64,000 nucleotides of DNA, taken from assembly GCA_963725665.1 (NCBI GenBank), contig CAVRZA010000004.1:288001-352000 (forward strand), in the 5' to 3' direction. The position numbers and the translations under genes are program-made. The DNA is from an uncultured Actinomycetes bacterium. GTDB taxonomy: Bacteria > Actinomycetota > Thermoleophilia > UBA2241. Of the stretch, positions 48,670 to 63,460 are shown in pieces. Positions within the stretch are counted from its first letter, which is position 1, and every line of letters begins with the position of its first letter. Under the pieces are notes generated by a model that saw only the letters and a list, made by a program, of their open reading frames with translations, was not told where the DNA came from and did no database searches.

Positions 48670-50079
48670 TCAGAACGCGAAGTCCTCGTAGTGGATGCGC
48701 CTGTCGGGAACACCCAACGACCGTGCCGTCGCGATCAGGTGCTCCATAAAGCCACCCGGACCGCAGACGTAGAGGTCACGATCGACGATGTCGGGCACCA
48801 GCCGGCGCAGGTGAGCCGCGTCGAGCGGCGCCTGCGAGCGCGGTCCGACGACTTCGTGAAGTCGTCCGCCGCGCTCGTCCACGAGCCGTGCGATCTCCTC
48901 CCGAAGGACGAGGTCGTGCTTGGTGGAGCCACGCAGCACGACGACGAGGTCGACGTGATCGGGCAGGTCGTCGAGCATGGCCCGCACCGGGGTCGACCCG
49001 ACGCCGGCGCCGACGAGCAGCACCCTGTCTGTATCACGCATGTGATGGGTGAAAGCGCCGTAGGGTCCTTCGATCGCGACCCGCGTGCCCGGCTTGAGCT
49101 CTGCCAGGGCCGAGCTGTGGTCGCCGACCGACTTGACCGTGATGCGCATCTCGTTCCCCGCCGGCAGAGCCGACAGCGAGTAGGGGTGCGCCTGCAACCA
49201 CATGCCGCGCTTCAAGAAGCGCCAGTGCAGGAACTGCCCGCCCGAGACCGGCAACCGGTCGAGGTTGCGCCCCCGAGTGACGACCGACACGACGCCGGGC
49301 GCCTCGTGTTCGACGCGCACGACCTTGAGCCGATGCCCGAGGCTGCGCACGATCGGCAGGGCGAAACGGTAGCTCAACACGACGCCGGCGGTCAGCAGCC
49401 ACACGCTGATCCAGTAGGCCCGCGCCCAGGGATGACCCAGGAACGGAGCTCCGGTAGCGAGCTGGTGCGTGAACGACAGCGCCGCTGCTAGGTACGTGTA
49501 GAGGTGGACGGCCCACCAGGTCTCGTAGCGCATCTTCTTGCGCACGTTGCGATACGAGGTCGCACCGGCCAGGAAGAACAGACCGAGCGCGGCGGCCGCG
49601 CCGAGCATCCCGGGGAAGGTCGTGACGAGGACGCCGATCTCATGCATGGCGCCGGTCGCGACTCCCTGGGCGTAGCCGAGGGTGATGAAGAGCGCGTGGG
49701 CGGCGATCAGGATGATGATCCAGGGCCCGAGCCGCCTGTGCCAGCGCACGAGCTTGTCTTGCCCGAGCGCCTGTTCGACCGCCGGTATGCGGCCGATCAT
49801 GAGGATGGTCACCAGCATCAGGTACGTGCCGAGCAGACCCGCGACGCGGCCGGCGAAGGTGAGCATGCCGCCCGGCGCGGCCAAATCGTGCGCCGTCGTG
49901 ACGGGCACGACGAGAGCGACGCTGACCGCCGCTCCCAGCCACGTCATCGTGTTGAAGAGGCGTGCCCATAGCTTGTTCGGCCGTGTCGCCTCGGCCCGAG
50001 CCCGGGAGCGCTCACGCGGCCTCCATCGGATCAGTTCGCCGGCGACCTCGGCGGCGCCGGCTTCCGACTCAATGTTCAC
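48670..50079 (-). CDS. Ferric reductase-like membrane protein with FAD/NAD-binding domains
   Basis: Heme His residues (WHR..G, AH, VH.Y, HQL), HPYSLS, EGPYG, GAGVG.TP, YVCGP. Confidence 0.9.
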   Translation of the reverse strand: MNIESEAGAAEVAGELIRWRPRERSRARAEATRPNKLWARLFNTMTWLGAAVSVALVVPVTTAHDLAAPGGMLTFAGRVAGLLGTYLMLVTILMIGRIPAVEQALGQDKLVRWHRRLGPWIIILIAAHALFITLGYAQGVATGAMHEIGVLVTTFPGMLGAAAALGLFFLAGATSYRNVRKKMRYETWWAVHLYTYLAAALSFTHQLATGAPFLGHPWARAYWISVWLLTAGVVLSYRFALPIVRSLGHRLKVVRVEHEAPGVVSVVTRGRNLDRLPVSGGQFLHWRFLKRGMWLQAHPYSLSALPAGNEMRITVKSVGDHSSALAELKPGTRVAIEGPYGAFTHHMRDTDRVLLVGAGVGSTPVRAMLDDLPDHVDLVVVLRGSTKHDLVLREEIARLVDERGGRLHEVVGPRSQAPLDAAHLRRLVPDIVDRDLYVCGPGGFMEHLIATARSLGVPDRRIHYEDFAF

Positions 50080-50154
50080 TGGCCTCAACTCCCTTGTGCG
50101 CGGCGGGGTCGGGACGACCCCGCCGCGCGTCTCTCGTTCACAGGGCTGCGGGGG

Positions 50155-50188
50155 AGTGTAGCCGGGCAAGATGAAGCGAGGATGAAGC
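50155..50188 (-). promoter_or_regulatory. Promoter with OmpR/PhoB-type direct repeats
   Basis: Minus strand GCTTCATC-N3-GCTTCATC-N9-TACACT. Confidence 0.6.
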
Positions 50189-50396
50189 AGCGGTCTCGCG
50201 TTGGCAGTTCAGCGGACTCCGGCCTCCGCCCGTAAGCGCCGCAGCCCAGCTCTCACAGACTGCCCATGACTCCCGCCCAGCCTGGTGCTGATATGGAAGG
50301 ACCTGCTGTCAAGAAGGCAGGCGCAATCGACCTTGCCGGGGGCAGAGGATGGGTGGAGTATGGCGACGGCGGGGGGAGCGCGCCGGGCTCTGTCGT

Positions 50397-50530
50397 CGAC
50401 GCGCGGTCCAAGCTGATATGCGCGGGTTTGGTCATCCGCATGACCGTCTCTGCGTCGGGAGCTGCCGCTTCTCTAAGGTCGAGCGTGGCCCGTGCGCGGG
50501 TTGCTCAATAGCACCAACGCGGATGCTCCT
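50397..50530 (-). ncRNA. Predicted bridge/seek RNA of the IS110 element
   Basis: Two stem-internal-loop modules whose loop segments match the target flanks and the donor junction. Confidence 0.8.
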
Positions 50531-50576
50531 CGCGCGCCCGGCGCGCTCGCCTCGCCGCCTTCCTGCCGACGGTGCT

Positions 50577-51653
50577 CTAGCTCTCCATCACCGCCAGGCT
50601 CCAGCACCAGCCGGCGAGCTCGCGGGCGACCGCCACGGCGGCGACCTTGGAACACTTGCCACGCTCATCGAAGCGCCGCCGGCGACGCTGCAGGCGACGC
50701 TCCGCAAGTCGCGCCCGCTCGCGCACCGTGCCCGCGGCGGCGGCGCGCGCGCGCTGCACGCGCACGCTTCTGCCCGGTGGCCGGCGCTGCTGCCAGGCGG
50801 CCTCGATGAGCAGGCGCCGCGCGTGGCCGTTGCCGGTCTTGGTGATCGCCCCCTGACGCCGCCTCGTCCCGGAGGACTGCTCGCAGGGCACAAGGCCGAG
50901 GAAGGGGCCCAGGCTGCGGCCAGAAAAGCGCTGCCAGTCGCCGATCTCGACGGTGAGCGCGAACGCGGTCAGCGTCGAGATGCCACGCAGACAGGTCAGG
51001 CGCCCGACGACCGGCGCCCAGGGCTCCTTGAGCGCCTCCGCGGCGATCGCCGCGTCGAGGGCGTCACGGCGATCGCGCGCGGCGCACATCGCCGCCAGCC
51101 CCTCCTCATAGGCGACCTGCAATGACGGCTCGCAGAAACGCTGGCGGGCGAGCCACAGCTCGTGTGTCTGTGTCCAGCTGTGCTCCTCCCAGACGATGCC
51201 CCGACGCAAAAGCAGCTTGGCGAGGCGGTGACGGTGGCGCATCAGGTCGCAGCGCGCGTCCTCGCGGGCGCGCACCAGGTCGCGGGCGGCCTCCTCGGCG
51301 AGATCGGGCACCCGTACCGCGACCAGCTCCTCGAGGCGCAGCAGGCGGGCCAGCCGCAGCGCGTCGCGGCGATCGGTCTTGACGCGCTCGCCGGGTGCGC
51401 GCGGGATGCGCGAGAGGGCCGCCACGAGGCAGCGTATCCCGGCCTCGCTCAGAGCGCGGGCCAGGACGTAGCCGGTTGGTCCGGCCTCGCAGGCGACCGC
51501 CTGCGGGCCGGGCTGCGCGCGCACCCAGCCGACAAGCTCCTTGGCGGGCACCGGTGCGGCGAGGCTGCGCACCTCGCCGCTAAGCCCGTCGAGCACTCCC
51601 GCCTGGACCGAGCGGGCGTGCACGTCCAGGCCGATGAACGAACGCTCATGCAC
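50577..51653 (-). CDS. IS110 family recombinase
   Basis: GLDVH, EAGPTG, KTDRRDA (DEDD), GLVP.EQSSG, ITKTGN; TAAGGAGG SD. Confidence 0.95.
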   Translation of the reverse strand: MHERSFIGLDVHARSVQAGVLDGLSGEVRSLAAPVPAKELVGWVRAQPGPQAVACEAGPTGYVLARALSEAGIRCLVAALSRIPRAPGERVKTDRRDALRLARLLRLEELVAVRVPDLAEEAARDLVRAREDARCDLMRHRHRLAKLLLRRGIVWEEHSWTQTHELWLARQRFCEPSLQVAYEEGLAAMCAARDRRDALDAAIAAEALKEPWAPVVGRLTCLRGISTLTAFALTVEIGDWQRFSGRSLGPFLGLVPCEQSSGTRRRQGAITKTGNGHARRLLIEAAWQQRRPPGRSVRVQRARAAAAGTVRERARLAERRLQRRRRRFDERGKCSKVAAVAVARELAGWCWSLAVMES

Positions 51654-51782
51654 ACCGTCGCCTCCTTACGGCCGCGGTCTGCCGTCGCGCCAGCCGCAAC
51701 GGCGACCCGCGCCAGACTATGCACCGGGGGCGACGGGCCGTTCCATATGGTCTAGGGTCCTCTGCAGAAGCAGGCAGTCTGT

Positions 51783-51821
51783 GCCGAACATCATCTACAG
51801 ACTGTTTAATCCTTGTTAGGC
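51783..51821 (+). other. Candidate attI or shortened attC at the head of the cassette array
   Basis: Ends in core site GTTAGGC; GCCGAAC 5' but no attC-like internal stem. Confidence 0.5.
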
Positions 51822-51830
51822 GGGGTAACC

Positions 51831-52298
51831 GTGGGGATCTCACTCCGGCCCGTCGCGGCAGGCGACCAACCGAGCATCGACCGCTGGGCGGCGGTGGCGG
51901 CCGACCACATGTCGCGCACACGTCCCTACGCCGAGGGCGCGGACCGTCACGACCCGGACCGCGGTCTCTTCTGGTATGTGATCGCCGACGGCGGCCGCGA
52001 CCTTGGCACCGTGTGGATTGAGCTGCCTCCGGGCTCCGACGAAGCGGTCCTGGGTGTGTTCCTCGGCGATGCGACGTTCTTCGGTCGCGGCATCGGCGCG
52101 GCGGCCATCGAGCTCGCCGTCGCCGAGTTCCGCGGCGCCCATCCGCAGTTGCCGGTCTCGCTGCGGGTGCGCCGCACGAACCAGCGTGCCATCGCCTGCT
52201 ACCGCCGTGTCGGCTTCGCGGTCACCGGCAGCGGCACCAAGTCGCTGCCCTCTGGCGAGGCCGTCCCCTACTACCGCATGGTCCTCGCGCCGTGCTGA
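51831..52298 (+). CDS. GNAT acetyltransferase (cassette 1)
   Basis: GRGIG, N.RAIACYRRVGF; starts 10 nt after GTTAGGC. Confidence 0.85.
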   Translation: MGISLRPVAAGDQPSIDRWAAVAADHMSRTRPYAEGADRHDPDRGLFWYVIADGGRDLGTVWIELPPGSDEAVLGVFLGDATFFGRGIGAAAIELAVAEFRGAHPQLPVSLRVRRTNQRAIACYRRVGFAVTGSGTKSLPSGEAVPYYRMVLAPC

Positions 52299-52325
52299 GC
52301 TACCCCTCGCGGTGTGCTCCGACCC

Positions 52326-52341
52326 GCCTAGCAAGCGCATC
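52326..52341 (+). repeat. 5' half of an attC site interrupted by IS110 copy 2
   Basis: GCCTAGC-AAGCGCATC, near-complement of cassette start GTTAGGC and similar to the attC at 54861. Confidence 0.65.
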
Positions 52342-53045
52342 ATTGGTGTCAGTCTCTCCCCGTGGGATCCCCTGGCACTCGTCAGGTAGCCTCGGACCCG
52401 ACGGCGGAGTGACCCAAAGCGTTTCTGTCGCCCCCGAGGGGCGGACCGTCAGCTGTATTGTCCCCCGCCGCCGGGATCCGAGGGGTCGCCGACGTGACCT
52501 GATAGGAGCCTGGCCGGAAGGCCCCAGCCAAGGCGTGTCCGCCGGCGGTCCCACTGAGATCGGCTGCAACCGACCAAGGGGGACTGAAGTGATCGTAATC
52601 GGGATCGACCCGCATATGAAGACCCATACCGCCGTGGCCGTCGACGCTGCGAGCGGGCGGACGCTCGCCGAGAAGACGGTGAGCAGCGACCCGCGCGGGC
52701 ACGAGGAGCTGCTTCTATGGGCACGCGCTCTCGGTCCCGAGCGCTGCTTTGCCATCGAGGACTGCCGCCACGTCTCCAGCCGGCTTGAGCGCCACCTGCT
52801 GCCCCGCGGCGAGCGCCTAGTGCGCGTGCCGCCGAAGCTGATGGCGGGCGCGCGCTCCTCGGCGCGCACTTACGGCAAGTCCGACCCCATCGATGCGGCC
52901 TGTGTGGCGCGTGCCGCGCTGCGCGAGCCCGACCTTCCGAAGGCCAGCCTCGCCGGGCCCGAGCAGGACGTGCGCCTGCTCGTCGACCACCGCGACGACC
53001 TCGTCGGTGAGCGCCAGCGCATCCAGAAACGCCTGCGCTGGAACC
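52342..53045 (+). mobile_element. Truncated IS110 element (left non-coding end plus RuvC domain only)
   Basis: About 250-nt structured leader, then IGIDPH, IED, GKSDPIDA; C-terminal domain and right end missing. Confidence 0.85.
52400..52550 (+). ncRNA. Predicted bridge RNA of IS110 copy 2
   Basis: Two loops each framed by GTGACC...TGTCC around an inner hairpin. Confidence 0.65.
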
Positions 53046-53425
53046 TGCAGAATGGCGCTATGTGTTTGCGTGGCATTATCCGCACGGATGAAGTTGGTGA
53101 CTATCGCTTCCGTAGTATCAAGCCAGCAAGCTACCCGATCACCGATGATGGGCCTGTCGGGGGATTGCTGCGAAAACTAGGCCGACATCCTTACCGTCCG
53201 GCCCATATCCACTTTATCGTCTCAGCCGAAGGTTATCGGCCAATCGTCACTCAGATCTTCGCGGAAGGCGATGAGTATTTGGAGTCGGATACCGTGTTCG
53301 GGGTCAAAGACTCGCTCGTGGCAGAGTTTGTTCGGGTGGATTCGGCTGAAGAGGCATCCCATTATGGGTTCCAGCCGCCGTTCTACAAAGTGGAATTCAA
53401 CTTCATCTTGGATAGAGCCAGCTGA
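52589..53425 (+). pseudogene. Chimeric ORF: IS110 N-terminus fused in frame to intradiol dioxygenase C-terminus (cassette 2 remnant)
   Basis: After RLRW the frame reads LRG..RTD..G.Y.F.SIKP.SYP..DGPVG..RPAHIHF; visibly lower GC after about 53045. Confidence 0.85.
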
Positions 53426-53442
53426 GGTCTTGGGTGCAGGCC

Positions 53443-53512
53443 GCCGAACCAGCGCACGCAGTTGACCGCGCTCCGCTTCGCTCCGTGCGGCAACTGATGC
53501 GCGCCGTTCGGC
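53443..53512 (+). repeat. attC site (70 bp)
   Basis: GCCGAAC..GCGCAC-G-CAGTTG...CAACTG-ATGCGC..GTTCGGC imperfect palindrome with extra base. Confidence 0.88.
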
Positions 53513-53545
53513 AGCCACCTGACCGAGGGCCGCGGTGAAAGCTGG

Positions 53546-54268
53546 ATGACTGGCTACTACACGAACAAGCTGTCCGGCAGCCGGCTGGAGCGCTGCTACG
53601 AGGTGGCGCCTACGCGCGTGAGGCAGTATCTCGAGGCGGAGATCCGCCACGTTCTTGAACGACTTCGGTCCACGGACTCCGTCCTCGAGCTGGGGTGCGG
53701 GTATGGACGAATCGCTCGGAGGCTCGCGACAGTTGCCCACCATGTCGTCGGGATCGACACGGCATCCGAGAGCCTCGAGCTCGCTCGGCGAATGCTAGAG
53801 CCCGGGGCATGGTGCGAGTTCATGCAGATGGACGCGCTCGATCTACGCTTTCCTGACTGCGCGTTTGATGCAGTCGTGTGTCTTCAGAACGGGATATGCG
53901 CTTTCGGAGTCGACCAGGAGGCTCTTCTTCGGGAGGCCCTCCGCGTGACACGTGAAGGCGGGATGGTGCTGTTTTCCACGTACACCGATGGGATCTGGCC
54001 CGAGCGCCTGGCGTGGTTTGAGGCTCAGGCGGCCGAGGGGCTGGTCGGGGCCATCGACTACACGGCGTCCCACAACGGCGTCATCGTCTGCGACGACGGC
54101 TTTCGTGCGGGACGAATGACCGCCGGAGACTTCCGCTCCCTCTGTTCTGAGATCGGTGTGGCACCGATGATTGCTGAGGTGGACGGATCGATTCTCTTCT
54201 GCGAGATCATCAAGCCGGGTGCTGCCCAACAGGGCGATGCATCTGACCGCGCAACGCGCTGCAGGTGA
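53546..54268 (+). CDS. Class I SAM-dependent methyltransferase (cassette 3)
   Basis: VLELGCGYG, VGID, FDAVV; 3' end runs into attC. Confidence 0.9.
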   Translation: MTGYYTNKLSGSRLERCYEVAPTRVRQYLEAEIRHVLERLRSTDSVLELGCGYGRIARRLATVAHHVVGIDTASESLELARRMLEPGAWCEFMQMDALDLRFPDCAFDAVVCLQNGICAFGVDQEALLREALRVTREGGMVLFSTYTDGIWPERLAWFEAQAAEGLVGAIDYTASHNGVIVCDDGFRAGRMTAGDFRSLCSEIGVAPMIAEVDGSILFCEIIKPGAAQQGDASDRATRCR

Positions 54269-54285
54269 TCGCCAGAGCGTTCGCC
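54224..54285 (+). repeat. attC site (62 bp)
   Basis: GCCCAAC..GGCGAT-G-CATCTG...CAGGTG-ATCGCC..GTTCGCC. Confidence 0.85.
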
Positions 54286-54301
54286 CTGACTCGCCCCACG
54301 A

Positions 54302-54338
54302 TTGACTTAGGCCCACTTTGAGGTACGCTATAGCGTAC
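54302..54338 (+). promoter_or_regulatory. TA promoter and operator
   Basis: TTGACT-16-TACGCT overlapped by perfect palindrome GTACGCTATAGCGTAC. Confidence 0.8.
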
Positions 54339-54357
54339 GGTTTGCAGGAGGACCCTC

Positions 54358-54600
54358 ATGACCAGTCTCACGGCGACAGAAGCGCGCAAGATCCTCTACC
54401 GGCTTCTCGACGAGGTGTCTGAGTCTCACGAGCCAGTCCAGATCACCGGCAAGCGCGGCAACGCCGTACTCGTGGGCGAGGATGATTGGCGAGCCGTCCA
54501 AGAAACGCTGCACCTGCTCTCAATCCCCGGCATGCGCGAGTCCATCCGGGAGGGCATGGCCACCCCGATCGATGAGCTCGACGAGAAGCCTGGTTGGTGA
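54358..54600 (+). CDS. yefM: Phd/YefM antitoxin (cassette 4)
   Basis: TATEAR..LY.L.D.V, PV.ITGKRGNAVL, ETL.L. Confidence 0.92.
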   Translation: MTSLTATEARKILYRLLDEVSESHEPVQITGKRGNAVLVGEDDWRAVQETLHLLSIPGMRESIREGMATPIDELDEKPGW

Positions 54601-54860
54601 GCTGGCGTCTCTTCTACACGAAGCAGGCGCAGCGGGATGCAAGGAAGCTCGCCGCCGCTGGCCTGAGGCCGAAGGTGCAGGTGCTCCTCGATCTCCTCGC
54701 CGAGAACCCCTATCAGGCACCGCCGCCCTTCGAGAAGCTGGTCGGCGACCTGTCCGGTGCGTACTCGCGGCGAATCACCATCCAGCACCGGCTCGTCTAC
54801 CAGGTCCTGGACGACGAGCGAGCGGTGAAGGTTCTGAGGATGTGGACGCATTACGAGTAG
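54597..54860 (+). CDS. yoeB: Txe/YoeB toxin (cassette 4)
   Basis: EKLVGDL.GAYSRRI..QHRLVY, WTHY. Confidence 0.93.
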   Translation: MSWRLFYTKQAQRDARKLAAAGLRPKVQVLLDLLAENPYQAPPPFEKLVGDLSGAYSRRITIQHRLVYQVLDDERAVKVLRMWTHYE

Positions 54861-54926
54861 GGCGAGCAGGCGCATCGCGCAGATGCCGCGCTGCGCGCGG
54901 CACAGTTCACGCGCAACACGTTGGCC
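54861..54926 (+). repeat. Degenerate attC site (66 bp)
   Basis: GGCGAGC..GCGCAT...TGCCGCG/CGCGGCA...ACGCGC-AACAC-GTTGGCC directly after yoeB stop. Confidence 0.7.
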
Positions 54927-54995
54927 GCACTAGTGAGCACCGTGCCGAAGGCTTCAGTGCTAGGCTGATGGACGTCGACGCGAAAGGGGCCTTTC

Positions 54996-55535
54996 ATGTC
55001 TGACTCCGCGAAACGAATCGTCGCTGGCGCGTCGATTGTCCTAGCGGCCGTCGCTGCCGCCATCGCCGCGGCCATGGCGTGGGAGTTCCTCACCTCGCCA
55101 CTCAACGATGACACACTGTCGTCGGCCAGCGCCATCCAGAGCTTTTCAGGAGACGCCATCTTCGTCGCCCTTGTGGCTGCCGGCCTGAGCGCGCTGGTGA
55201 TCGCTTCGGCCCTGGCAGCTTGGAGCGACCGGCTGCGGCTTGTCGTCCGCCTGGCGGCGGGAAGCATCATGGCCCTCGCGGGATGCGCTTCCGCGCTCGT
55301 GCTCGACCCGGCCAGCGCGAGCCTCCAGGCACGATTCATGGTCTACCCCCACGGCGAAGGCGTGACCGTCACAGCGCGGCTGTTCACGTTCTGGATCGAA
55401 CGCCTTTCAACGCTGTCGTGGCTCTATACGGCTTGCGCCGCCGGGATCGTGCTCACCACGGTCGTCGCGATCGTCCTGAGCAGAGGCACGTTACGGCGGC
55501 ATCGGTCGTGCTCTGCTGCGACGCCGGTCGGGTGA
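54996..55535 (+). CDS. Hypothetical 4-TM membrane protein (probable cassette 5)
   Basis: Follows GTTGGCC core; hydrophobic segments. Confidence 0.65.
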   Translation: MSDSAKRIVAGASIVLAAVAAAIAAAMAWEFLTSPLNDDTLSSASAIQSFSGDAIFVALVAAGLSALVIASALAAWSDRLRLVVRLAAGSIMALAGCASALVLDPASASLQARFMVYPHGEGVTVTARLFTFWIERLSTLSWLYTACAAGIVLTTVVAIVLSRGTLRRHRSCSAATPVG

Positions 55536-55549
55536 CGATCCGGCCTGCA

Positions 55550-56191
55550 GTGAGGAGAGTGTCAAAGGGCCTGACCGCGACCGCAGCTGCGGCCGGAACC
55601 TCGGCAGTGGTCCACCGCCTCGCCCGCCGCTCGGGCGTGACCGCCGAGGAGGCGAGGCGCCCGTTGCCCGGCGATGAAGTCGTCGCTCACCCGCTCTGGA
55701 CATCGACGCGCGGCATCACCATCGACGCCCCGCCGGCGGCGGTGTGGCCCTGGATCGTGCAGATGGGTTACCCGACCTTCCGCGCCGGCTGGTACACGCC
55801 GCATTGGCTGGACGAACTCATGTGGGGCAAACGGCCGCGCAGCGCCGACACGATCGTCCCCGAGTTGCAGGACCTCAAGCTCGGCGACAAGGTGCCCGAC
55901 AGCGCCGATTTCGGCATGTACTACACGGTCGCTGAGATCGAAAGGCCCGGCCGCCTCGTCCTGCACTCGACTAGGCACGTCGTGCCGCCACTGCGCACGG
56001 TCGACTTCAGCTGGGTGTTCGTGCTCTTGCCCCTGCCGGAGGAGCGTACCCGGCTTCTCGTGCGCGCCCGTGTCGCGTTTGCGCCGGTCTGGCCGTTCCC
56101 CTTGGTGGAGGCCGTCGTCGGCCTCGGCGACTTCTTCAACGCCACGGTGATGCTCAGGGGCATCCGCTCGCGAGTCACTACTTGGCGATGA
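55550..56191 (+). CDS. SRPBCC-like hypothetical protein (start uncertain)
   Basis: LPGD, TRGITIDAPP..VWPWIVQMG..RAGWY, SWVFVL, TRLLVR. Confidence 0.75.
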   Translation: MRRVSKGLTATAAAAGTSAVVHRLARRSGVTAEEARRPLPGDEVVAHPLWTSTRGITIDAPPAAVWPWIVQMGYPTFRAGWYTPHWLDELMWGKRPRSADTIVPELQDLKLGDKVPDSADFGMYYTVAEIERPGRLVLHSTRHVVPPLRTVDFSWVFVLLPLPEERTRLLVRARVAFAPVWPFPLVEAVVGLGDFFNATVMLRGIRSRVTTWR

Positions 56192-56456
56192 GGAAGACCT
56201 CGTCGTGCAGCATCGAGACGCGCACCTTGTCGCGCACCTCGAGCGACCTGATCGCCTTTGCTATCGCCGAGCGCACCGTCTCCGGTTTGCGGCCTATCTT
56301 GGTGACGTTCACTTCCATGGCGGCCTCACCGGATTCCATGAAGGCCTTGACCAGGTCTGGGTAGAAAGTCGATGCCTCACGACCTCGACGCGTGGCCAGC
56401 GTCGAGATATCCCGCGGCTTCAGGTAGTCGGCTGGGTTCCATTTCTTCACTGCCAT
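56178..56456 (-). CDS. Small basic hypothetical protein
   Basis: GGGAGG SD, TATACT -10 at 56517-56522, 92 aa. Confidence 0.7.
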   Translation of the reverse strand: MAVKKWNPADYLKPRDISTLATRRGREASTFYPDLVKAFMESGEAAMEVNVTKIGRKPETVRSAIAKAIRSLEVRDKVRVSMLHDEVFLIAK

Positions 56457-56741
56457 CACTGTCCTCCCTTTGTGTGCGACGTACATCGCCGTCTAGAGTT
56501 CCCGGTTGCGATTCCCAGTATAACCCTCGTTGCATGCAGCCGGCGTTTCAGCTTTCGGCATGTTCCAGTCAAGTGGACCATCGCATGCGCGCTACGGAAG
56601 TCCTCTACGCTCTCGGAACCACCGCCGAGGTGTCGCTCCGGCTGGGAACGCGTCGATGTGATGATCGGCGTCGAAACGGGCACCATTCACGACGTCTTAC
56701 AAAGAACCGGCTGCAACAGCCGTATTTCGAGGAGCTGCCAT

Positions 56742-57224
56742 ATGGACACTCGCTCCAGAGGCGCCAATTGGGTGATGTTCTCCGCGATCGTACTGTTCGT
56801 CGCGGGGGTGTTCGCCGTCATCGACGGTCTTGTCGCCGTCTACAAGTCGACCTTTTTCACGCAGAACGCCGTCTACGTGTTCAGCGATCTGAACACGTGG
56901 GGCTGGATCGTCTTCGGTCTCGGCGTCGCAGGTATCGCCGCGGGTCTCGCCGTGTTCACAGGCCGCGAATGGGCCCGCTGGACCGGCATCATCGTGGCCG
57001 GCCTGGGCGCCGTGGGTCAGCTGCTGTTCGCCCAGGCGTATCCGCTCTGGTCTCTCATGATCATGGGTCTCAACGTCCTGGTGATCTACGGTCTGGCCGC
57101 CTATGGCGGTCGCGATTACGCGGCCAGCGAGAGCTCCGGCTACTACGAGTCGACTGAGTCGCGCACCTCGCCGCGTTCCGGGAGCGCGAGCGACGAGACC
57201 ACGCGGGATCGGCGCGCCGCGTAG
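56742..57224 (+). CDS. Four-TM actinobacterial-type membrane protein
   Basis: GAGGAG SD; WGWI..GLG, WARW.GI, YPLWS pattern. Confidence 0.8.
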   Translation: MDTRSRGANWVMFSAIVLFVAGVFAVIDGLVAVYKSTFFTQNAVYVFSDLNTWGWIVFGLGVAGIAAGLAVFTGREWARWTGIIVAGLGAVGQLLFAQAYPLWSLMIMGLNVLVIYGLAAYGGRDYAASESSGYYESTESRTSPRSGSASDETTRDRRAA

Positions 57225-57427
57225 TCACTCGTTTCAGTCTGCCTCCCGGCGGGCGGGACGTAGTCACGGGGCGGCGGGTGCGGCACAGCCGCACCCGCCG
57301 CCCCATACACAAGTCCGGTCTATGGCACGGGATCGGGTCGCGCCTGAGGAGCGCCGCGCCATCGGTACCTCGACCAGACCGAGCAGGGGTAGTATGAGAC
57401 TGCTTGGCGGCTGCGGCGAGGCACGCG

Positions 57428-58298
57428 GTGACCCTGGTGGATCGCTCTGATATCGGCATCTCGACCGGCGCGTACGCGGCGCTGCCCCTGGCTGAGGCGC
57501 TCTCGCGCATCGCCGAGATCGCGTCCGCGGCCGAGGTGTGTTCCTGGGGTCGCCACTCGCTGCTCGAGTCCGAAAACGCGCGTGCCCTCACCGTCGCCGG
57601 CCTGCCTTTCACGGTGCACGGACCGTTCACACACGACGGGCTCGGCAGCCGTCTCTCGTCGAAGCGACGCGCGGCCGTCGATCTGCATCGGCGGCACTTG
57701 TGGGCCGCCGCCGAGCTCGGAGCGACGCTCTACGTGCTACACCCCGACCTGCGGCATCGCAAGAGACCGAGGAGCTCACGGGTGGCGGCGTCGCTCGAGC
57801 GCTCGTTCGCGGAGCTTCGTGCCCTGCAGGACGAACTCGGCGTGACCGTCGTCGTCGAGAACATGCCCTTCAGCGGGCGCTCGCACTTCACCGCGCCCGG
57901 TGATCTCGACCTGCAAGGCCTCGGCATAGCGTTGGACGTCGGCCACGCCGCCATCGCGGGTACGCTCGGCGCCTGGCTCGCCAACCCTCGCGGGACGGTC
58001 CGCCACGTGCACCTGCACGACAACCACGGCAGCCGGGGGTCATGATCTGCACCACTCGTTGGGGACGGGAGTGGTCGACGTCGCCCCTGCTCTCACGCTG
58101 GCGCGCGCCGTCGGCGCCACGATCGTTCTCGAGCACATCGTCGAGGCCCACGTCGGCACGAGCCTCGAGCATCTACGGGCTCGCGGGTTGATCGCCCGGG
58201 CCGATTCGGCCGACGGGAAGGTCGATGACGACCTCGCCCGCAGAGGACGTCGAGTCGGCCGTCTGTGGGTAGGGCGGCTCGGAACGGGCCTACCTTGA
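57428..58298 (+). pseudogene. Sugar-phosphate isomerase/AP-endonuclease-2 TIM barrel protein, frameshifted at G5 run 58035-58039
   Basis: HGPF, VENM, DVGHA, HLHDNHG, then DLH..LGTG.V..VLEH in the next frame. Confidence 0.8.
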
Positions 58299-60130
58299 CC
58301 GCGCAGCAGACGGACGACGCGAAGCACCTCAGGGCGAGGGCGCGCTTCCTCGCCCGCCACGAGCTCTTCAAGTCGCTGACACCCCGCGAGCTCGAGCGGA
58401 CTGCTGCCTCGATCGTGGAGCGTGTGGCGTCGGCGGGGGAAGCGGTGCTGGTCGAGGGCGGCCCGCCGGGCACGGAGCTCTTCGTGGTGCGCGAGGGCAC
58501 CTTCGAGCTCATCCACGAGCAGGTCGTCGTCGACATCATGACCGGATGCCAGGTGTTCGGCCACCCGACGCTGCTGACCGGTCTGGCGCCGGAGTTCACT
58601 GTCCGCGCCCGCGAGGACTCGCTTCTCTACTGCATTCCCAAGGACATCGCTCTCGAGCTGCTCACGCGGCCCGAGGGGGTGGCGTTCGTGGCGCGCACGG
58701 GACGCGACCGCCTGATCCAGGCGGCGCGCACCATGCGCGCCCTGCCCGACATCCGCACGCAGCCGGTCACCTCACTGGTGCGCAGCGCACCGCTGTTCTG
58801 CGAGCCCGACACGACCGTGCGCGAGGCGGCTCGACTGATGGCCGCCGAGGGCAGGTCCGCCCTGCTCGTCGAGACGCGCGACGGCCTTGGCATCGTCACC
58901 GACGTCGACCTGCGCGACCGGGTCGTCGCCGGCGCCGTGTCACGCGACGCGCCGGTGAGCGCCGTGATGACGGCGCCGGTAAAGACGGTGAGCGCCGAGG
59001 TCACGGCGCCCGAGGCGAGCATCGAGATGATGGCCGCGGGCGTCAACCACCTGCCGGTGGTCGACGCCCGCGGCCGAGTCGTGGGCATCCTGTCGGCGAG
59101 CAGCCTCATGACGCTCGACGCGCGCAGCCCGTTCGCGCTGCGCCGCACGATCCTCGCGGCGCGCTCCGACGACGACGTCGTGAGGGCCGCCGGCGACATG
59201 CCGAAGCTCTTCGTCGACCTTGTCGACGTTCACCTCGAAGCGCCGGCGCTGACGCGCATCCTCACCCTGCTGCAGGATGCCATGACGTCGCGTCTGCTGG
59301 AGCTCGCTGTGCAGCGTCGCGGAGAGCCGCCCGTTCCCTACGCCTGGCTCGCCTTCGGCAGCGCCGGCCGCAGCGAGCTCACCCTCGCCTCCGACCAGGA
59401 CAACGGTCTCGCCTACGCCGACAGCGACGATCCCGCCGTCGACGAGTACTTCCGCGTACTCGCCCTCGATGTCAACTCCGGCTTGCGCCGCTGCGGCTTC
59501 GGCCTCGATCCCCACGGCACCGTGGCGAGCAACTCCCAGTGGCGCCTGTCGCTCTCGACGTGGCGTTACGTCCTCGAGCGCAGCCTGCAGGGCGTCGATC
59601 TCGATCGCCTCGCGCGCGCCAGCGTCTCCTTCGACTTCCGCCAGGTGGCCGGCGAGCTCGACGTAGTGCCATCCCTGACCGATGTCATCCGCGAAGCGCC
59701 CCAGCACCCGCGTTTCCTGCGTGCCATGTCGCGCCTGGCGACCCATGCCCCCTTGCCGCTCGGGTTCCGCCATCGGCTCCTCGGCTTGGTCGACATCAAG
59801 AAGGACGGGCTGCTGCCCATCCAGAGCCTCGCGCGCTACCTCGCTCTCTCCAGGAGGATCACGGCGGCGGCGACGCTCGAACGTCTTGCCGCCCTGCGTG
59901 AGGCGGACGTGCTCGATGCCGATCGCGCGCGGTCGCTGCGCGAAGCCTTCATCGCCATGGCCCACCTTCAGCTCCGCCACCACGCCAACGCCGTCCGCGC
60001 CGGCCGGACACCCGACAACCTCCTCACCGTAGACCGCCTGCGACCGCTGACCCGGGTCACCCTGCAGGAGGCGCTGCGAGAGGTCGCCGACGCGCAGAAG
60101 CACGTGCCCCGGACAGTCGTTCCGCGCTAG
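58295..60130 (+). CDS. cNMP-binding/CBS/DUF294 putative nucleotidyltransferase
   Basis: cNMP domain, GIVTD.DLR CBS pair, GSAGRSE..SDQDN, DIKK.G. Confidence 0.9.
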   Translation: MTAQQTDDAKHLRARARFLARHELFKSLTPRELERTAASIVERVASAGEAVLVEGGPPGTELFVVREGTFELIHEQVVVDIMTGCQVFGHPTLLTGLAPEFTVRAREDSLLYCIPKDIALELLTRPEGVAFVARTGRDRLIQAARTMRALPDIRTQPVTSLVRSAPLFCEPDTTVREAARLMAAEGRSALLVETRDGLGIVTDVDLRDRVVAGAVSRDAPVSAVMTAPVKTVSAEVTAPEASIEMMAAGVNHLPVVDARGRVVGILSASSLMTLDARSPFALRRTILAARSDDDVVRAAGDMPKLFVDLVDVHLEAPALTRILTLLQDAMTSRLLELAVQRRGEPPVPYAWLAFGSAGRSELTLASDQDNGLAYADSDDPAVDEYFRVLALDVNSGLRRCGFGLDPHGTVASNSQWRLSLSTWRYVLERSLQGVDLDRLARASVSFDFRQVAGELDVVPSLTDVIREAPQHPRFLRAMSRLATHAPLPLGFRHRLLGLVDIKKDGLLPIQSLARYLALSRRITAAATLERLAALREADVLDADRARSLREAFIAMAHLQLRHHANAVRAGRTPDNLLTVDRLRPLTRVTLQEALREVADAQKHVPRTVVPR

Positions 60131-60213
60131 GGCTCGGCAATCGGCGCTACGGGGAGCCGGGTCGATTCGGGGGCGGCGGCGCCGGTCGGCCCCGTGCGAC
60201 AGGGTTCAGCCGT

Positions 60214-60498
60214 TCAGTACTCCCTGCTCTCGATCGCCTCGACGATACGCACCTTTGGGTCCGTCATGATCTGTCCCTCGACGTGCCCCCAGAGCTCGCG
60301 CAATGCCGTCCGCATGGCCTCGGCCTGGCTTTCGCTGTCGAACTCGAGCTCGACGATCGCGTAGCGCGCATCGTCGACGGGGCGCATCACGCGGTAGCGC
60401 CGGACCCCCGACTGCTCGCGATGCACCGGGTCGCTGTCGAAGGCGCGCTTCCAGGCGTCGAAGTCGGGCACCGGATGTTCTATCTGCAGGATGTGCAT
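60214..60498 (-). CDS. Small hypothetical protein (dimeric alpha/beta barrel-like)
   Basis: H.V.DFDAWK.AFD.D...R..SGV; AAAGGA SD. Confidence 0.75.
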   Translation of the reverse strand: MHILQIEHPVPDFDAWKRAFDSDPVHREQSGVRRYRVMRPVDDARYAIVELEFDSESQAEAMRTALRELWGHVEGQIMTDPKVRIVEAIESREY

Positions 60499-60644
60499 GG
60501 GCTTCCTTTCGGTCCGGATGTAACGGGCGGGTCAGCTCCTCACGGATGGATTCCCCGCCGAGAGCACCCGTCTCGCCGTTTGCCCTGGCCCTAGGCCCGC
60601 CGCTCAGCCTCAGGGTCCCGGTCGGTCCGGTCCTATAGTATTCG

Positions 60645-61910
60645 GTGCGGGAGCTCGAGACTGACCGTGGGCTCGACCGCTGGATGAGAGAGGGGGCGAC
60701 GATCGTGGCGGCCGGTGCGCGAGACAAGCCGTTGGCTTCGCAGCGCTGGGTCTTCACTATGACGGTTGCCTTCCTGTACGCGGCAACCGTGCTGCGGTCG
60801 CTGCTCGCGTTCGACGGCGAGCAGCGCGTCCTTGCCGTCACGCTGCTGCTCGTCTGGCTCGTCCTGCTGCTCACCGAGCCGCGACTGTCCCGCCTGTGGC
60901 GTCCTTACTTCGGCGTGTACGTCGCGCTGCAGAGCGCCGTCGTCGCCATCCTTCTTCCTCAGTCGGATTCCAGCGACTTCTTCGCCATCCTCTTGGCGGT
61001 GACGAGCATGCAGGCCATGCAACGGTGGCAGCCCAGGACGGCCGCGGTCGTCATCGGGCTCTTTGCCGTGCTGACGGGGCTTTCACTGACCGATGAGTAC
61101 GGCCCCGCCCAGGCCGTCACCTTCGCTGCCATCTACACCGCCGCCAACCTCTTCCTGGGCACGTTCGCACTGGCGACGAAGCGGGCTACTGAGGCCAGGT
61201 TGCGGAACGAGGCGCTGGTGATCGATCTGCAGGAGGCGAACCGGCAAACGACCGACTATGCGCGGCGCGCGGAGCGCCTGGCGGGCGCGCGGGAGCGGCA
61301 GCGACTGGCTCGCGACCTGCACGACTCTGTGACGCAGACGCTCTTCAGCATGACGCTCACCGCGCGGTCGGCTCTGCTGCTCCTCCAGCGACATCCCGAC
61401 CAGGTGAAGGCCCAGGTCGACCAGATCGACCACCTCGCGCACAGCGCCCTCTCGGAGATGACCGTGCTGAGCGCCGAGTTGCCGTCGTCGCCGCCCACCG
61501 AGGGGGGGCTGGTCGCAAGTCTGCAGCGTCATCTGGCCGACCGCCCGCTCCAGGACGGGTTGTTGGTCTCTATGGAGGTGGAGGCCGACGGCGTGCTGCC
61601 GCCTCTTGAGGAGCAGGCTCTCCTGCGCATCGTCCAGGAGGCGCTCAACAACATCGTCAAGCACGCGGGAGAATCGCGCGCGGTCGTCCGGTTACGTTTG
61701 CGACAGCCGTTCCGGATCGAGATCGAGGATCAGGGCCGGGGCTTCGACCCGGCTCAGACCGATACCGGAGGTGTGGGCTTGATCAGCATGAGGGAGCGGG
61801 CGGCCGAGATCGGGTGGAGCTTGACGGTCGACAGCTCCCCGGGTGCGGGTACGCGGGTCGTGGCCGAAGAGGTGCTGAGCCAGGAGGGAGGAAGCGATGC
61901 CGGAGAGTGA
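60645..61910 (+). CDS. Membrane sensor histidine kinase (HisKA_3; start uncertain)
   Basis: ERQRLARDLHDSVTQ, QEALNNIVKHA, DQGRGF, GLISMRER. Confidence 0.93.
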   Translation: MRELETDRGLDRWMREGATIVAAGARDKPLASQRWVFTMTVAFLYAATVLRSLLAFDGEQRVLAVTLLLVWLVLLLTEPRLSRLWRPYFGVYVALQSAVVAILLPQSDSSDFFAILLAVTSMQAMQRWQPRTAAVVIGLFAVLTGLSLTDEYGPAQAVTFAAIYTAANLFLGTFALATKRATEARLRNEALVIDLQEANRQTTDYARRAERLAGARERQRLARDLHDSVTQTLFSMTLTARSALLLLQRHPDQVKAQVDQIDHLAHSALSEMTVLSAELPSSPPTEGGLVASLQRHLADRPLQDGLLVSMEVEADGVLPPLEEQALLRIVQEALNNIVKHAGESRAVVRLRLRQPFRIEIEDQGRGFDPAQTDTGGVGLISMRERAAEIGWSLTVDSSPGAGTRVVAEEVLSQEGGSDAGE

Positions 61911-62607
61911 AACGATCAAGGTGCTGATCGTCGACGACCATCAGGTCGTGCGTCGAGGCCTGCGGACCTTCCTCGACCTACAGGAGGATATCGTCGTCGT
62001 CGGCGAGGCGGCCGATGGACTGGCGGCGGTGGACCTTGCCGTTCAGCTCGGGCCGGACATCGTGCTGATGGATATCGTGATGCCAAAGCTGGACGGGATC
62101 GAGGCCACGCGCAGGATCAAGGAGCTCGGCGTCGGCATCGGCGTGATCGTCCTCACCAGCTTCGCCGGAGACGAGCAGGTCATGCCGGCTATCGAGGCAG
62201 GCGCCTCGAGCTACTTGCTGAAGGACGTCACTCCTGAGGATCTGGTCGAGGCTGTCCGCGCTGTCTACCGAGGCGAGCCTCGCCTGCACCCCGATGCCTT
62301 GCGCAAGGTCATGGATGCGGCCAAGGCGGCGCGGCCAGGCGACGCCCACCCCGAGCCTGGTGCGCCGCCCGGCGACCTCACCGAACGCGAGCTCGAGGTG
62401 ATCCGCCTGGTGGCGGAGGGACGCAGCAACCGCGAGATCGCCGACGAGTTCGTGATCAGCGAAAAGACCGTCAAGACGCACATCAGCCACGTCCTGGCCA
62501 AACTGGAACTGAAGGACCGCACCCAGCTCGCCATCTACGCCCTCAAGCACGGCCTCGCCGACCAGGCGGACGCGCAAGGCCAATCCGACGTCACCCGTGG
62601 CGGGTAG
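61897..62607 (+). CDS. NarL/LuxR family response regulator
   Basis: VDDH, LMDIVMP, LT.RE.EV, SEKTVKTH. Confidence 0.95.
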   Translation: MPESETIKVLIVDDHQVVRRGLRTFLDLQEDIVVVGEAADGLAAVDLAVQLGPDIVLMDIVMPKLDGIEATRRIKELGVGIGVIVLTSFAGDEQVMPAIEAGASSYLLKDVTPEDLVEAVRAVYRGEPRLHPDALRKVMDAAKAARPGDAHPEPGAPPGDLTERELEVIRLVAEGRSNREIADEFVISEKTVKTHISHVLAKLELKDRTQLAIYALKHGLADQADAQGQSDVTRGG

Positions 62608-63460
62608 GGAAGGAGCTTCGCTCGTGCTGGGGTCGGGCGACGGTGTGAGCGGCGTCAACGGCGGCGAAAGGCCCAGTCGTATCGGCTTGGCAGCCACGGT
62701 AGTCGTGTGGGCCGCCGTGTTGGCGCGCGTGCTCACACTCACGACGGACACCGGCCTGCGGCTGTGGTACGCGGCGGGCCTCTCGGCCTTTCTTGTCATC
62801 CTCATCATCGTGCTGTGGCGCCGACCCCTCTCGACGGGACTGCTGCACGTCGCGTTCGCGCTCCAGTCTGCCATCGTGCTGCTGCTGCTGGCGCTGAACC
62901 CCGAGCGGGATTTCCTGACGACACTGTTCGTGCTCCAGTGCTACCAAGCCGCCATCGTCTTCACGGGTCGCACGCGCCTGGTCTGGGTAGCCCTGCTCGT
63001 GACGCTGATCGGCGCCTCGCTGGCGCTGCAACTGGGCCTGCTGCGCGGCCTTGCGCTGGCGCTGGTCCCTATGGCGGCCGGCGTCGTGTTGTCGACCTAC
63101 GTAATCGTGAATCGTGAGCTCGAGGCGGCTCGGGCGACAAGCGAACGCATGGTCGCCGACCTGCAGGTGGCCCAGCAGCAGCTGAAGCGGTACGCCAGCC
63201 AGGTCGACGAGCTCGTCAGCATCGAAGAGCGCTCCAAACTGGCTCGCGAACTGCAGGAGTCCGTGTCGCAGACGCTGTCGGCCATCCTTTCGGTCACTGG
63301 TGCGGCAGGGGAGGTGCTGGATCATCCCGACAGAGCCGGTGGGCAGCTCGAGCACCTGCAGGCGCTGACCCAACAGGCGCTCGCGCAGATGCGTGCCATC
63401 ATCAGCGAGCTGCGCCCTGCGGCTCCGGACGTCGCTGCCGACGCCGCAAGCGACGACTGA
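62597..63460 (+). CDS. Kinase paralogue lacking phospho-His and ATPase domain
   Basis: Similar TM region, ERSKLARELQESVSQTL, ends after MR..I.ELRP. Confidence 0.85.
   Translation: MAGREGASLVLGSGDGVSGVNGGERPSRIGLAATVVVWAAVLARVLTLTTDTGLRLWYAAGLSAFLVILIIVLWRRPLSTGLLHVAFALQSAIVLLLLALNPERDFLTTLFVLQCYQAAIVFTGRTRLVWVALLVTLIGASLALQLGLLRGLALALVPMAAGVVLSTYVIVNRELEAARATSERMVADLQVAQQQLKRYASQVDELVSIEERSKLARELQESVSQTLSAILSVTGAAGEVLDHPDRAGGQLEHLQALTQQALAQMRAIISELRPAAPDVAADAASDD

Follow-up and report, generated by a model that had tools for sequence, protein, structure and literature searches.

A gene-cassette array at 51.8–55.5 kb of a 64,000-nucleotide stretch of DNA from an uncultured Thermoleophilia bacterium (the window, by which we mean the whole stretch analysed; positions 288,001–352,000 of contig CAVRZA010000004.1) appears to be what is left of an integron. 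We put at roughly 90% the probability that this segment is a relic cluster of attC sites lacking integrase (CALIN), derived from an integron lineage native to its host, and that the integrase has been lost. Three complete attC sites and one half-site lie on the plus strand, and the genome has no intI. The intI gene with its IntI-specific extra domain, which distinguishes a complete integron and is missing here, is present in 47 of 89 genomes of the same family, adjoining homologues of the site with which the window array begins.

Cassettes and attC sites of the window array

The array comprises five co-oriented units on the plus strand, four of which are named by Pfam; the fifth, a membrane protein, has no family match. 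A preliminary description, drawn from the sequence alone, had listed GNAT, dioxygenase-remnant, methyltransferase and yefM–yoeB contents, each now backed by Pfam, and had placed palindromes at 52326, 53443, 54224 and 54861, which are the positions at which the R'' boxes GCCTAGC, GCCGAAC, GCCCAAC and GGCGAGC start. Its count of four attC-like separators stood for three complete sites (53443, 54224 and 54861; sites A, B and C), but the one at 52326 (site D) is only a left half, cut by a fragment of an IS110-family insertion sequence (IS). Similarly, a membrane-protein open reading frame (ORF) does follow the last attC, but no attC comes after it, and the gene is either the last cassette with its attC lost or the first resident gene. 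That description mentions neither the lack of this attC, nor the attI-like head, nor the two IS110-family elements.

51816–52343, plus strand: cassette 1, GNAT acetyltransferase (ORF 51813–52298; Pfam Acetyltransf_1, 1.2e-8; homologous GNAT in the array on contig C11)
52326–52332, plus strand: R'' box GCCTAGC, then AAGCGCATCA; end of cassette 1 and left half of attC D (7 of 9 positions complement the cassette start)
52344–53050, plus strand: second, different IS110-family fragment, comprising the leader and the N-terminal ~150 amino acids of the transposase (Pfam DEDD_Tnp_IS110, 3.1e-17, residues 103–253 of ORF 52292–53425)
53055–53425, plus strand: cassette 2 remnant, C-terminal part of an intradiol dioxygenase (Pfam Dioxygenase_C, 1.2e-29, profile positions 71–181 of 182)
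53443–53512, plus strand: attC A, GCCGAAC ... GTTCGGC (fold z −2.96; 61.6 bits with covariance model R1)
53546–54268, plus strand: cassette 3, S-adenosylmethionine-dependent methyltransferase (Pfam Methyltransf_25, 2.3e-21)
54224–54285, plus strand: attC B, GCCCAAC ... GTTCGCC (R1 66.1 bits); its R'' complements the start of cassette 3
54358–54860, plus strand: cassette 4, yefM–yoeB toxin–antitoxin pair (Pfam PhdYeFM, 2e-18; YoeB, 8e-10)
54861–54926, plus strand: attC C, GGCGAGC ... GTTGGCC, abutting the yoeB stop codon (R1 71 bits)
54996–55535, plus strand: membrane protein of 179 amino acids (ORF; no Pfam family)

The methyltransferase stop codon falls within attC B, and ORF 52292–53425 is an in-frame fusion of the IS110-family fragment to the dioxygenase remnant.

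Comparison with sites elsewhere showed that the palindromes at A, B and C are true attC sites. Six sites (three from the window, three from contigs C11 and C2) went into covariance model R1, the structure of which (7 R and 12 L pairs) was set by hand, a Nussinov consensus on a MAFFT alignment having proved poor. Sites A–C score 61.6–71 bits, whereas the next-best match in the window, the opposite strand of site A, reaches 23.3 bits and the best elsewhere in it 17.8 bits. As these sites belong to the training set, independent support comes from matches elsewhere. Outside that set, the same genome yielded C1:72939–73035 (61.8 bits), C1:73563–73677 (36.7 bits) and a third site on C11 (25 bits), as well as two lone weaker matches. 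The decisive control was provided by relatives: four other genomes contributed 77 kb of sequence surrounding their integrase genes and heads, and all 26 R1 matches at E up to 0.01 were co-oriented with the local head or intI and arranged as arrays. No opposite-strand R1 match occurred in these 77 kb, and two loci of genome G044 gave no R1 match on either strand.

The pairing pattern points the same way. In an alignment of 32 sites, which was fitted to R1 and hence favours pairing, 90.4% of cells pair versus 24–39% when partners are slid by 1–3 columns, and 89 cells have changed on both sides, values reached by none of 500 shuffles. The inner L''/L' helix of 12 pairs is 94% paired, with both-side changes at 8 of the 12, making it an imperfect inner inverted repeat conserved in structure rather than sequence. 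The three AAC/GTT pairs are kept in 30–31 of the 32 sites. R-box positions by the crossover pair poorly (10 and 16 of 32 unpaired at two positions), as expected given that the R' box in an array belongs to the next cassette. An extrahelical base is also present: at one L''-arm position, 28 of 32 sites have an unpaired top-strand C (a bottom-strand G), presumably the canonical extrahelical G of attC. The inverse core sites of attC are RYYYAAC (R'') and GTTRRRY (R'). Core triplets in the window are AAC/GTT in A and B and AGC/GTT in C and half-site D. Across the genome, 4 of the 10 complete sites have a degenerate R'' or R' triplet. An Rfam search of 49500–57500 picked up neither the head nor the attCs; its two matches, microRNA-like and due to chance, fall at 57264–57308. 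A first inverted-repeat scan, swamped by GC-rich chance pairs, had no attC among the 25 longest pairs listed.

Insertion of circular cassettes at G|TT predicts that the start of each cassette should complement its own end. The test covered 30 cassettes (9 of this genome, 21 of relatives), in each of which the 9 bases that follow the initial GTT were set against the 9 bases that precede the terminal AAC. Mean complementarity was 5.97 of 9 versus 3.87 (s.d. 0.21) for shuffled partners, and none of 20,000 shuffles reached the observed value, extending across arrays the earlier remark that a cassette's first bases complement its own end. The nine pairs from this genome averaged 5.89 of 9. The count conservatively retains an orphan head on contig C5 of relative G039, which scored 3 from a misplaced GTT. 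In an earlier count, same-cassette pairs averaged 5.95, the two ends of the same site 4.30 and unrelated pairs 3.73.

Multi-copy attI-type heads

The window array starts with a site, here called the head, whose sequence shows it to be homologous to attI, on the basis of its similarity to the interval between intI and the first cassette in relatives and of its junction with the first cassette. In the window it is in two parts, separated by a complete IS.

50250–50287, plus strand: left part of the head, a CACAGACTG site and ATGACT (−35-like), up to GGTGCT (BLAST to the intact copies on C11 and C2)
50288–51751, minus strand: complete IS110-family insertion sequence (transposase 50577–51653; Pfam DEDD_Tnp_IS110, Transposase_20)
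51752–51815, plus strand: right part of the head, TAGGGT (−10-like), CAGAA, CAGTCTGTG and ACAGACTGT, ending AATCCTTG (head model R2, 62.9 bits, E 5.4e-17; alignment A2)

The head is ~110 bp long, with three CAG-N-CTG motifs, a promoter-like pair ATGACA–17 nt–TAnnnT and the crossover ...AATCCTTG|TT, which in the window lies at 51815/51816. The window copy ends in ...AATCCTTGTTAGGC, the C11 copy in ...GTTGGGC and the C2 copy in ...GTTCGGC, and in all three of these arrays the bases after the head GTT complement the end of the first cassette at 6–7 of 9 positions. In relatives, a homologous head directly follows the intI stop codon on the same strand and is itself followed by cassettes and attCs. 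Alignment A2 of 11 heads contains invariant T-A-N3-T, CAGAA, CTG, AAT and GTT columns; within T-A-N3-T, 17 nt past ATGACA, T27 is nearly invariant and A28 and T32 are invariant. In other phyla too (Brocadiaceae, Planctomycetia and Desulfuromonas loci), intI is followed by three sites arranged in this way: TTATACAGACTGTATAA near the stop codon, an inverted copy midway and ACAGACTGTATAATCATTGTTAG at the crossover. The head lacks structure when folded as single-stranded DNA (z −0.26 to −1.19), which suits attI rather than attC. TAnnnT is an actinobacterial −10 pattern, and in view of it the conserved ATGACA–17 nt–TAGGGT suggests a cassette promoter within the head; in the window it would be split by the IS110 insertion.

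The complete IS110 element interrupts the head exactly between the −35-like and −10-like hexamers, with CT flanks on both sides. Its flanks are contiguous in the other copies: by genome BLAST, window pieces 50250–50289 and 51748–51822 adjoin at C11:457757–457865 and C2:226910–227016. Diverged relatives of parts of this element (76–85% identity) lie on C8 and C6. At site D the sequence leaves the attC consensus after AAGCGCATCA, where the second IS110-family fragment truncates the site, with the result that D retains its left arm only and cassette 2 lacks its 5' part; BLAST found no other copy of this fragment in the genome. The IS1111-attC group of IS110-family elements, reportedly described by Tetu and Holmes in 2008, is said to target integron attC sites. 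The present case is similar in having an IS110-family fragment in an attC and a second IS110-family element in an attI head, but the complete copy here targets the head rather than an attC, and the likeness holds at the level of the IS110 family only.

Three arrays in the genome are started by the head, in the window, on C11 and on C2, with attCs behind each. The C11 array (locus L009 3550–5870, G000:C11, minus strand) consists of an intact head, a membrane protein, an attC, a 118-amino-acid ORF, an attC, a GNAT gene and a weak third attC; this GNAT is homologous to that of the window and apparently frameshifted. Past the array lie two genes, named here by eye from the sequence: one, on the other strand, looks Doc-like, and the second looks like an IstB gene of IS21 type. 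One C11 site reads GCCCAAC AAGCGCGTCAACCTG ... CAGGTTACGCGCC CAGC GTTGGGC, with a second site also on C11, and the C2 site reads GCCGAAC ... GTTGGGC. The R box of the first-cassette attC is complementary to the cassette start at 7 of 7 positions on both C11 and C2 (7 of 9 and 6 of 9, respectively, over nine positions). A fourth array on C1 (L011 8281–9690, G000:C1, minus strand) has two attCs, one with R' GTC, and a weak head match only, 3.6 kb upstream at C1:77266–77320; its attCs flank what we read by eye, rather than from Pfam, as a DUF1801-like gene and precede a presumed dihydrofolate-reductase-like (RibD_C-type) gene.

Heads are common in the family. Head model R2, at E up to 0.001, has matches in 70 of 89 family genomes, often several per genome: 17 in G044 and 11 each in G041 and G055, all three without intI, and 16 in G021, 6 in G061 and 5 in G039. 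Among 150 matches listed, 33 lie 0–2 kb downstream of a same-strand IntI match and 117 do not; a further 90 matches fall outside these 150. Non-adjacent plus-strand heads in other genomes, among the matches listed, have more than 3 kb of contig upstream in 50 of 59 cases, enough for an adjacent intI to show. Orphan heads followed by attCs were seen both where intI lies elsewhere in the genome (G039 C5 and C7; G061 C12, twice) and in genomes without it (four in G041, two in G044), attC detection at family heads being incomplete, with at most 150 of thousands of candidates scored per genome (46–150). Head copies are closer within than between genomes (window–C11 about 90%, window–C2 83%, C11–G021 73%); two G039 heads hardly differ past a point ~10 nt ahead of the first CAG-N-CTG site, and two G061 heads stand in tandem, 325 bp apart, after intI. 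The genome studied here conforms to this family pattern in having three strong heads, each leading an array, and no integrase.

Three closely inspected heads of G044 (no intI, 97% complete) are without a GTT crossover or attC and keep the ATGACA...TAGGGT part, suggesting that some head copies may now serve as promoters only. At one G044 locus (L101 4300–7300, G044:C4), small genes stand in tandem behind promoter-like modules that derive from the head, have neither GTT nor attC and share a further upstream repeat. Two orphan heads of G039 and G041 were considered as orthologous loci with differing first cassettes, a comparison that was dropped because the flanking gene is itself repeated.

Integrase genes in the genome, family, class and phylum

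With the TIGR02249 profile and its 265-bit cut-off, no IntI was found in the genome (3.73 Mb, 12 contigs, 97.5% complete); the best matches are two Xer-like genes without model positions ~178–242, and tblastn with a relative's IntI gave no match or fragment above 35% identity. The array had been described as lacking an integrase, and this applies to the entire assembly. IntI above the cut-off is present in the 47 family genomes mentioned above, typically at 450–490 bits over the whole model, and in 0 of 14 control genomes. In relatives, intI lies on the cassette strand and is followed by the head and an attC array (the 'inverted integrase' layout), and the adjoining heads and attCs are of the type seen in the window, which bears out the earlier proposal that this lineage has or had its own integron system. 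Family IntIs share 64–78% identity with those of records whose titles name Chlorobiaceae, Desulfuromonas and Planctomycetia.

Integrases extend beyond the family, as judged from two samples of species-representative genomes. In the class sample, IntI was detected in 51 of 401 genomes, mostly in two families (f1 41/79, f4 11/61; also f6 1/24), and was absent from families f2 (0/79), f3 (0/76), f5 (0/28) and f7 (0/44). In the phylum sample it was detected in 23 of 401 and was clustered (f20 6/10, f22 7/21); minus the unpublished genomes G486 and G547, the count is 21 of 399. Passages of PMC9024848 state that complete-genome surveys report no complete integron in Actinobacteria, with a few elements that are possibly recent acquisitions, and the consulted part of PMC4889954 likewise gives none; sections of a review (PMC8618304) place Actinobacteriota among the phyla in which integrons have been detected. 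The premise of the preliminary description that integrons are essentially absent from Actinobacteria thus agrees with the complete-genome surveys but fails in the sampled species representatives. Full-text searches, which did not extend to subscription journals and supplements, turned up no account of Thermoleophilia integrons and none of orphan attI heads; supplementary tables may list integrons per phylum.

Two other leads on the integrase were set aside. An intI locus after ilvN was seen in one relative; ilvN adjoins intI in no other locus examined, and the ilvN of this genome (C4:271758–272213) has no intI after it. A degenerate 233-amino-acid Phage_integrase-family gene (L103 2214–2915, G039:C5) stands divergently beside three orphan heads of G039 and G041; its usual tyrosine position fails to align. 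It was rejected as an alternative integrase: it is truncated, it occurs in multiple copies without heads, and its two partial copies in this genome (80–82% identity, C1:464231–467776) do not adjoin heads.

Origin and present state of the array

An IntI-type tyrosine recombinase, acting in an ancestor or supplied in trans, would have inserted circular cassettes singly at the G|TT of attI, leaving each inserted cassette to begin with TT... and to end with its own folded attC. Because the genome has no intI, we presume the array to be frozen, and it now appears to be static and decaying. The IS110-split head, the IS110-family fragment that replaces half an attC together with the 5' part of the next cassette, and the two R'' boxes with AGC for AAC would be signs of this decay. 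The yefM–yoeB cassette has probably retained a promoter of its own and may lend the array stability. Upstream of yefM (54290–54357), a TTGACT–16 nt–TACGCT pair overlaps the palindrome GTACGCTATAGCGTAC; to judge from these motifs, they are probably the autoregulated promoter and operator of the toxin–antitoxin cassette.

Several observations weigh against a relic integron. No integrase that could recombine the sites was found in the genome. The fifth unit is followed by no attC, with no R1 match in 54931–63136 at E up to 10. R1 itself is home-made from six sites, three of them from the window, and is not the curated attC model of IntegronFinder, and the R' boxes GTTCGGC, GTTCGCC and GTTGGCC depart from the textbook GTTRRRY. 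By folding energy alone only site A is significant (top strand −30.1 kcal/mol, z −2.96), sites B (z −1.19) and C (z +0.15) being non-significant, although folding energy is weak evidence in DNA so rich in GC. An Escherichia coli-type sigma-70 scan of both intact heads found 0 promoter-like and 0 terminator-like sites. Finally, the best public DNA sequencing run shares only 0.20 of the sampled words, and run contigs are short and leave the IS junctions unbridged.

We considered four other explanations. The arrays could still be active if an IntI encoded on a plasmid, on an incoming element or in unassembled genomic DNA acted in trans on the three attI heads. The assembly, at 97.5% completeness in 12 contigs, leaves room for this; relatives with one intI do have distant heads with attC arrays (the G039 and G061 cases above), and the first-cassette R boxes of C11 and C2 still match their cassette starts perfectly. 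Set against these points are the lack of any IntI match or fragment in the assembly and the accumulated damage (the head and one attC disrupted by ISs, one cassette truncated, and triplets degenerate in 4 of 10 complete sites), and we regard continued activity as improbable. We hold it similarly improbable that the head is a dispersed promoter or regulatory repeat standing before accessory genes rather than a recombination site. Such a repeat would accommodate the 17 heads of G044, a genome without intI, of which the three inspected have lost GTT and attCs and kept ATGACA...TAGGGT, as well as the 117 of 150 listed heads that are not next to intI. It would not readily account for the 33 that lie just downstream of a same-strand intI, for heads that end in G|TT with the next 9 bases complementing the first-cassette end in 3 of 3 arrays, for the three-site layout shared with loci of other phyla, or for the unstructured single strand expected of attI.

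A binning or assembly artefact, in which a cassette segment of another phylum was joined to an actinobacterial contig, is very unlikely. GC content does fall to 0.60–0.64 at 53–55 kb (0.60 in 53001–54000) from about 0.69–0.72 around it, the contamination estimate is 5.04%, and no run bridges all junctions; lower GC is, however, expected of acquired cassettes. The array is internal to a 654-kb contig, the same head recurs on the large contigs C2 and C11 and the same attC type on C1, the flanking gene is family-specific, and an integrase and head of the matching kind occur in half of the family. That flanking gene, the ferric-reductase-like upstream neighbour of the array, is 65–80% identical to its orthologues in six family genomes, and outside the family identity does not exceed 35%; no head adjoins its orthologues in two relatives. 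The closest same-family IntI loci are in records titled as Thermoleophilia, Actinomycetes or Actinomycetota metagenome-assembled genomes (L020, the record of the query itself, at 100% identity, is titled Actinomycetota), Thermoleophilia being a class of Actinomycetota, and the host had accordingly been recognized correctly as an apparent actinobacterium. Among public runs, X3 includes a contig without the IS in which 50287 and 51774 are linked through 22 other letters; an 854-nt X3 contig covers 53369–54222 and stops at the attC, and a 575-nt one covers 54270–54844. A contig of run X1 bridges 54811–54961 with no differences, and no RNA run is listed among those with the sampled words. That cassette-sized contigs in another metagenome break at attCs may, like the junction signature, be an indirect sign of recombination by an integrase. 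Chance palindromes, terminators or repetitive extragenic palindromic (REP)-like repeats between unrelated genes can be given almost no credence: high-GC DNA folds well, and B and C fold no better than shuffles, but the compensatory changes, the junction signature, the strand-consistent matches near intI and the gap in scores within the window all contradict this explanation.

The relic array resembles known CALINs (Cury et al. 2016, PMC4889954) in having at least two co-oriented attCs with cassettes, no intI within reach and no nearby intI pseudogene, a lack shared by 95% of the CALINs of that article. Its association with ISs is a further likeness, noted there for mechanisms (iii) and (iv). 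The window array differs in keeping a full, IS-split, attI-type 5' head that also starts two further arrays. IntegronFinder, as described there, annotates attI only by exact match to classes 1–3, and for this reason the heads of CALINs have gone unsurveyed. The relatives' intI, head and attCs lie on one strand, as in the 'inverted'-integrase integrons of, for example, Treponema (passages in PMC4889954 and PMC13323075); the present system differs in its Thermoleophilia host, in the loss of the integrase from the genome studied and in its multi-copy heads. Sections of PMC12901181 describe delta-attI-type cassettes in class 1 and 2 mobile integrons, where attI likewise lies away from intI and is recombinable by IntI; tandem heads, as in G061, are a further likeness. 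Whereas those are attI fragments of 14–244 nt that replace attC inside an array, here whole heads of ~95–110 bp with a promoter-like part start separate arrays at distant chromosomal loci.

We also advance a broader and tentative proposal, to which we give somewhat less than even odds: that this Thermoleophilia family has a distributed integron, in which scattered multi-copy attI–promoter heads (up to 17 per genome), each able to head an array, would be served in trans by a single co-oriented IntI, integrase-less genomes keeping orphan platforms. If so, many CALINs would be secondary attI platforms rather than debris, and integrons would be native to a sizeable part of the uncultured Actinomycetota. 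The presumed barrier to integrons in Actinomycetota is not general, given the frequency of IntI in the family, class and phylum samples. Full attI heads away from an integrase bear on the origin of CALINs and offer material for studying attI recognition in trans.

Two further features were noted in passing. At 57264–57308 of the window, between convergent genes, lies a perfect 20-bp GC-rich hairpin that is probably a terminator. On C1, at least five phage-integrase-type matches cluster within 60 kb (C1:473134–529682), which suggests a region rich in integrative elements.

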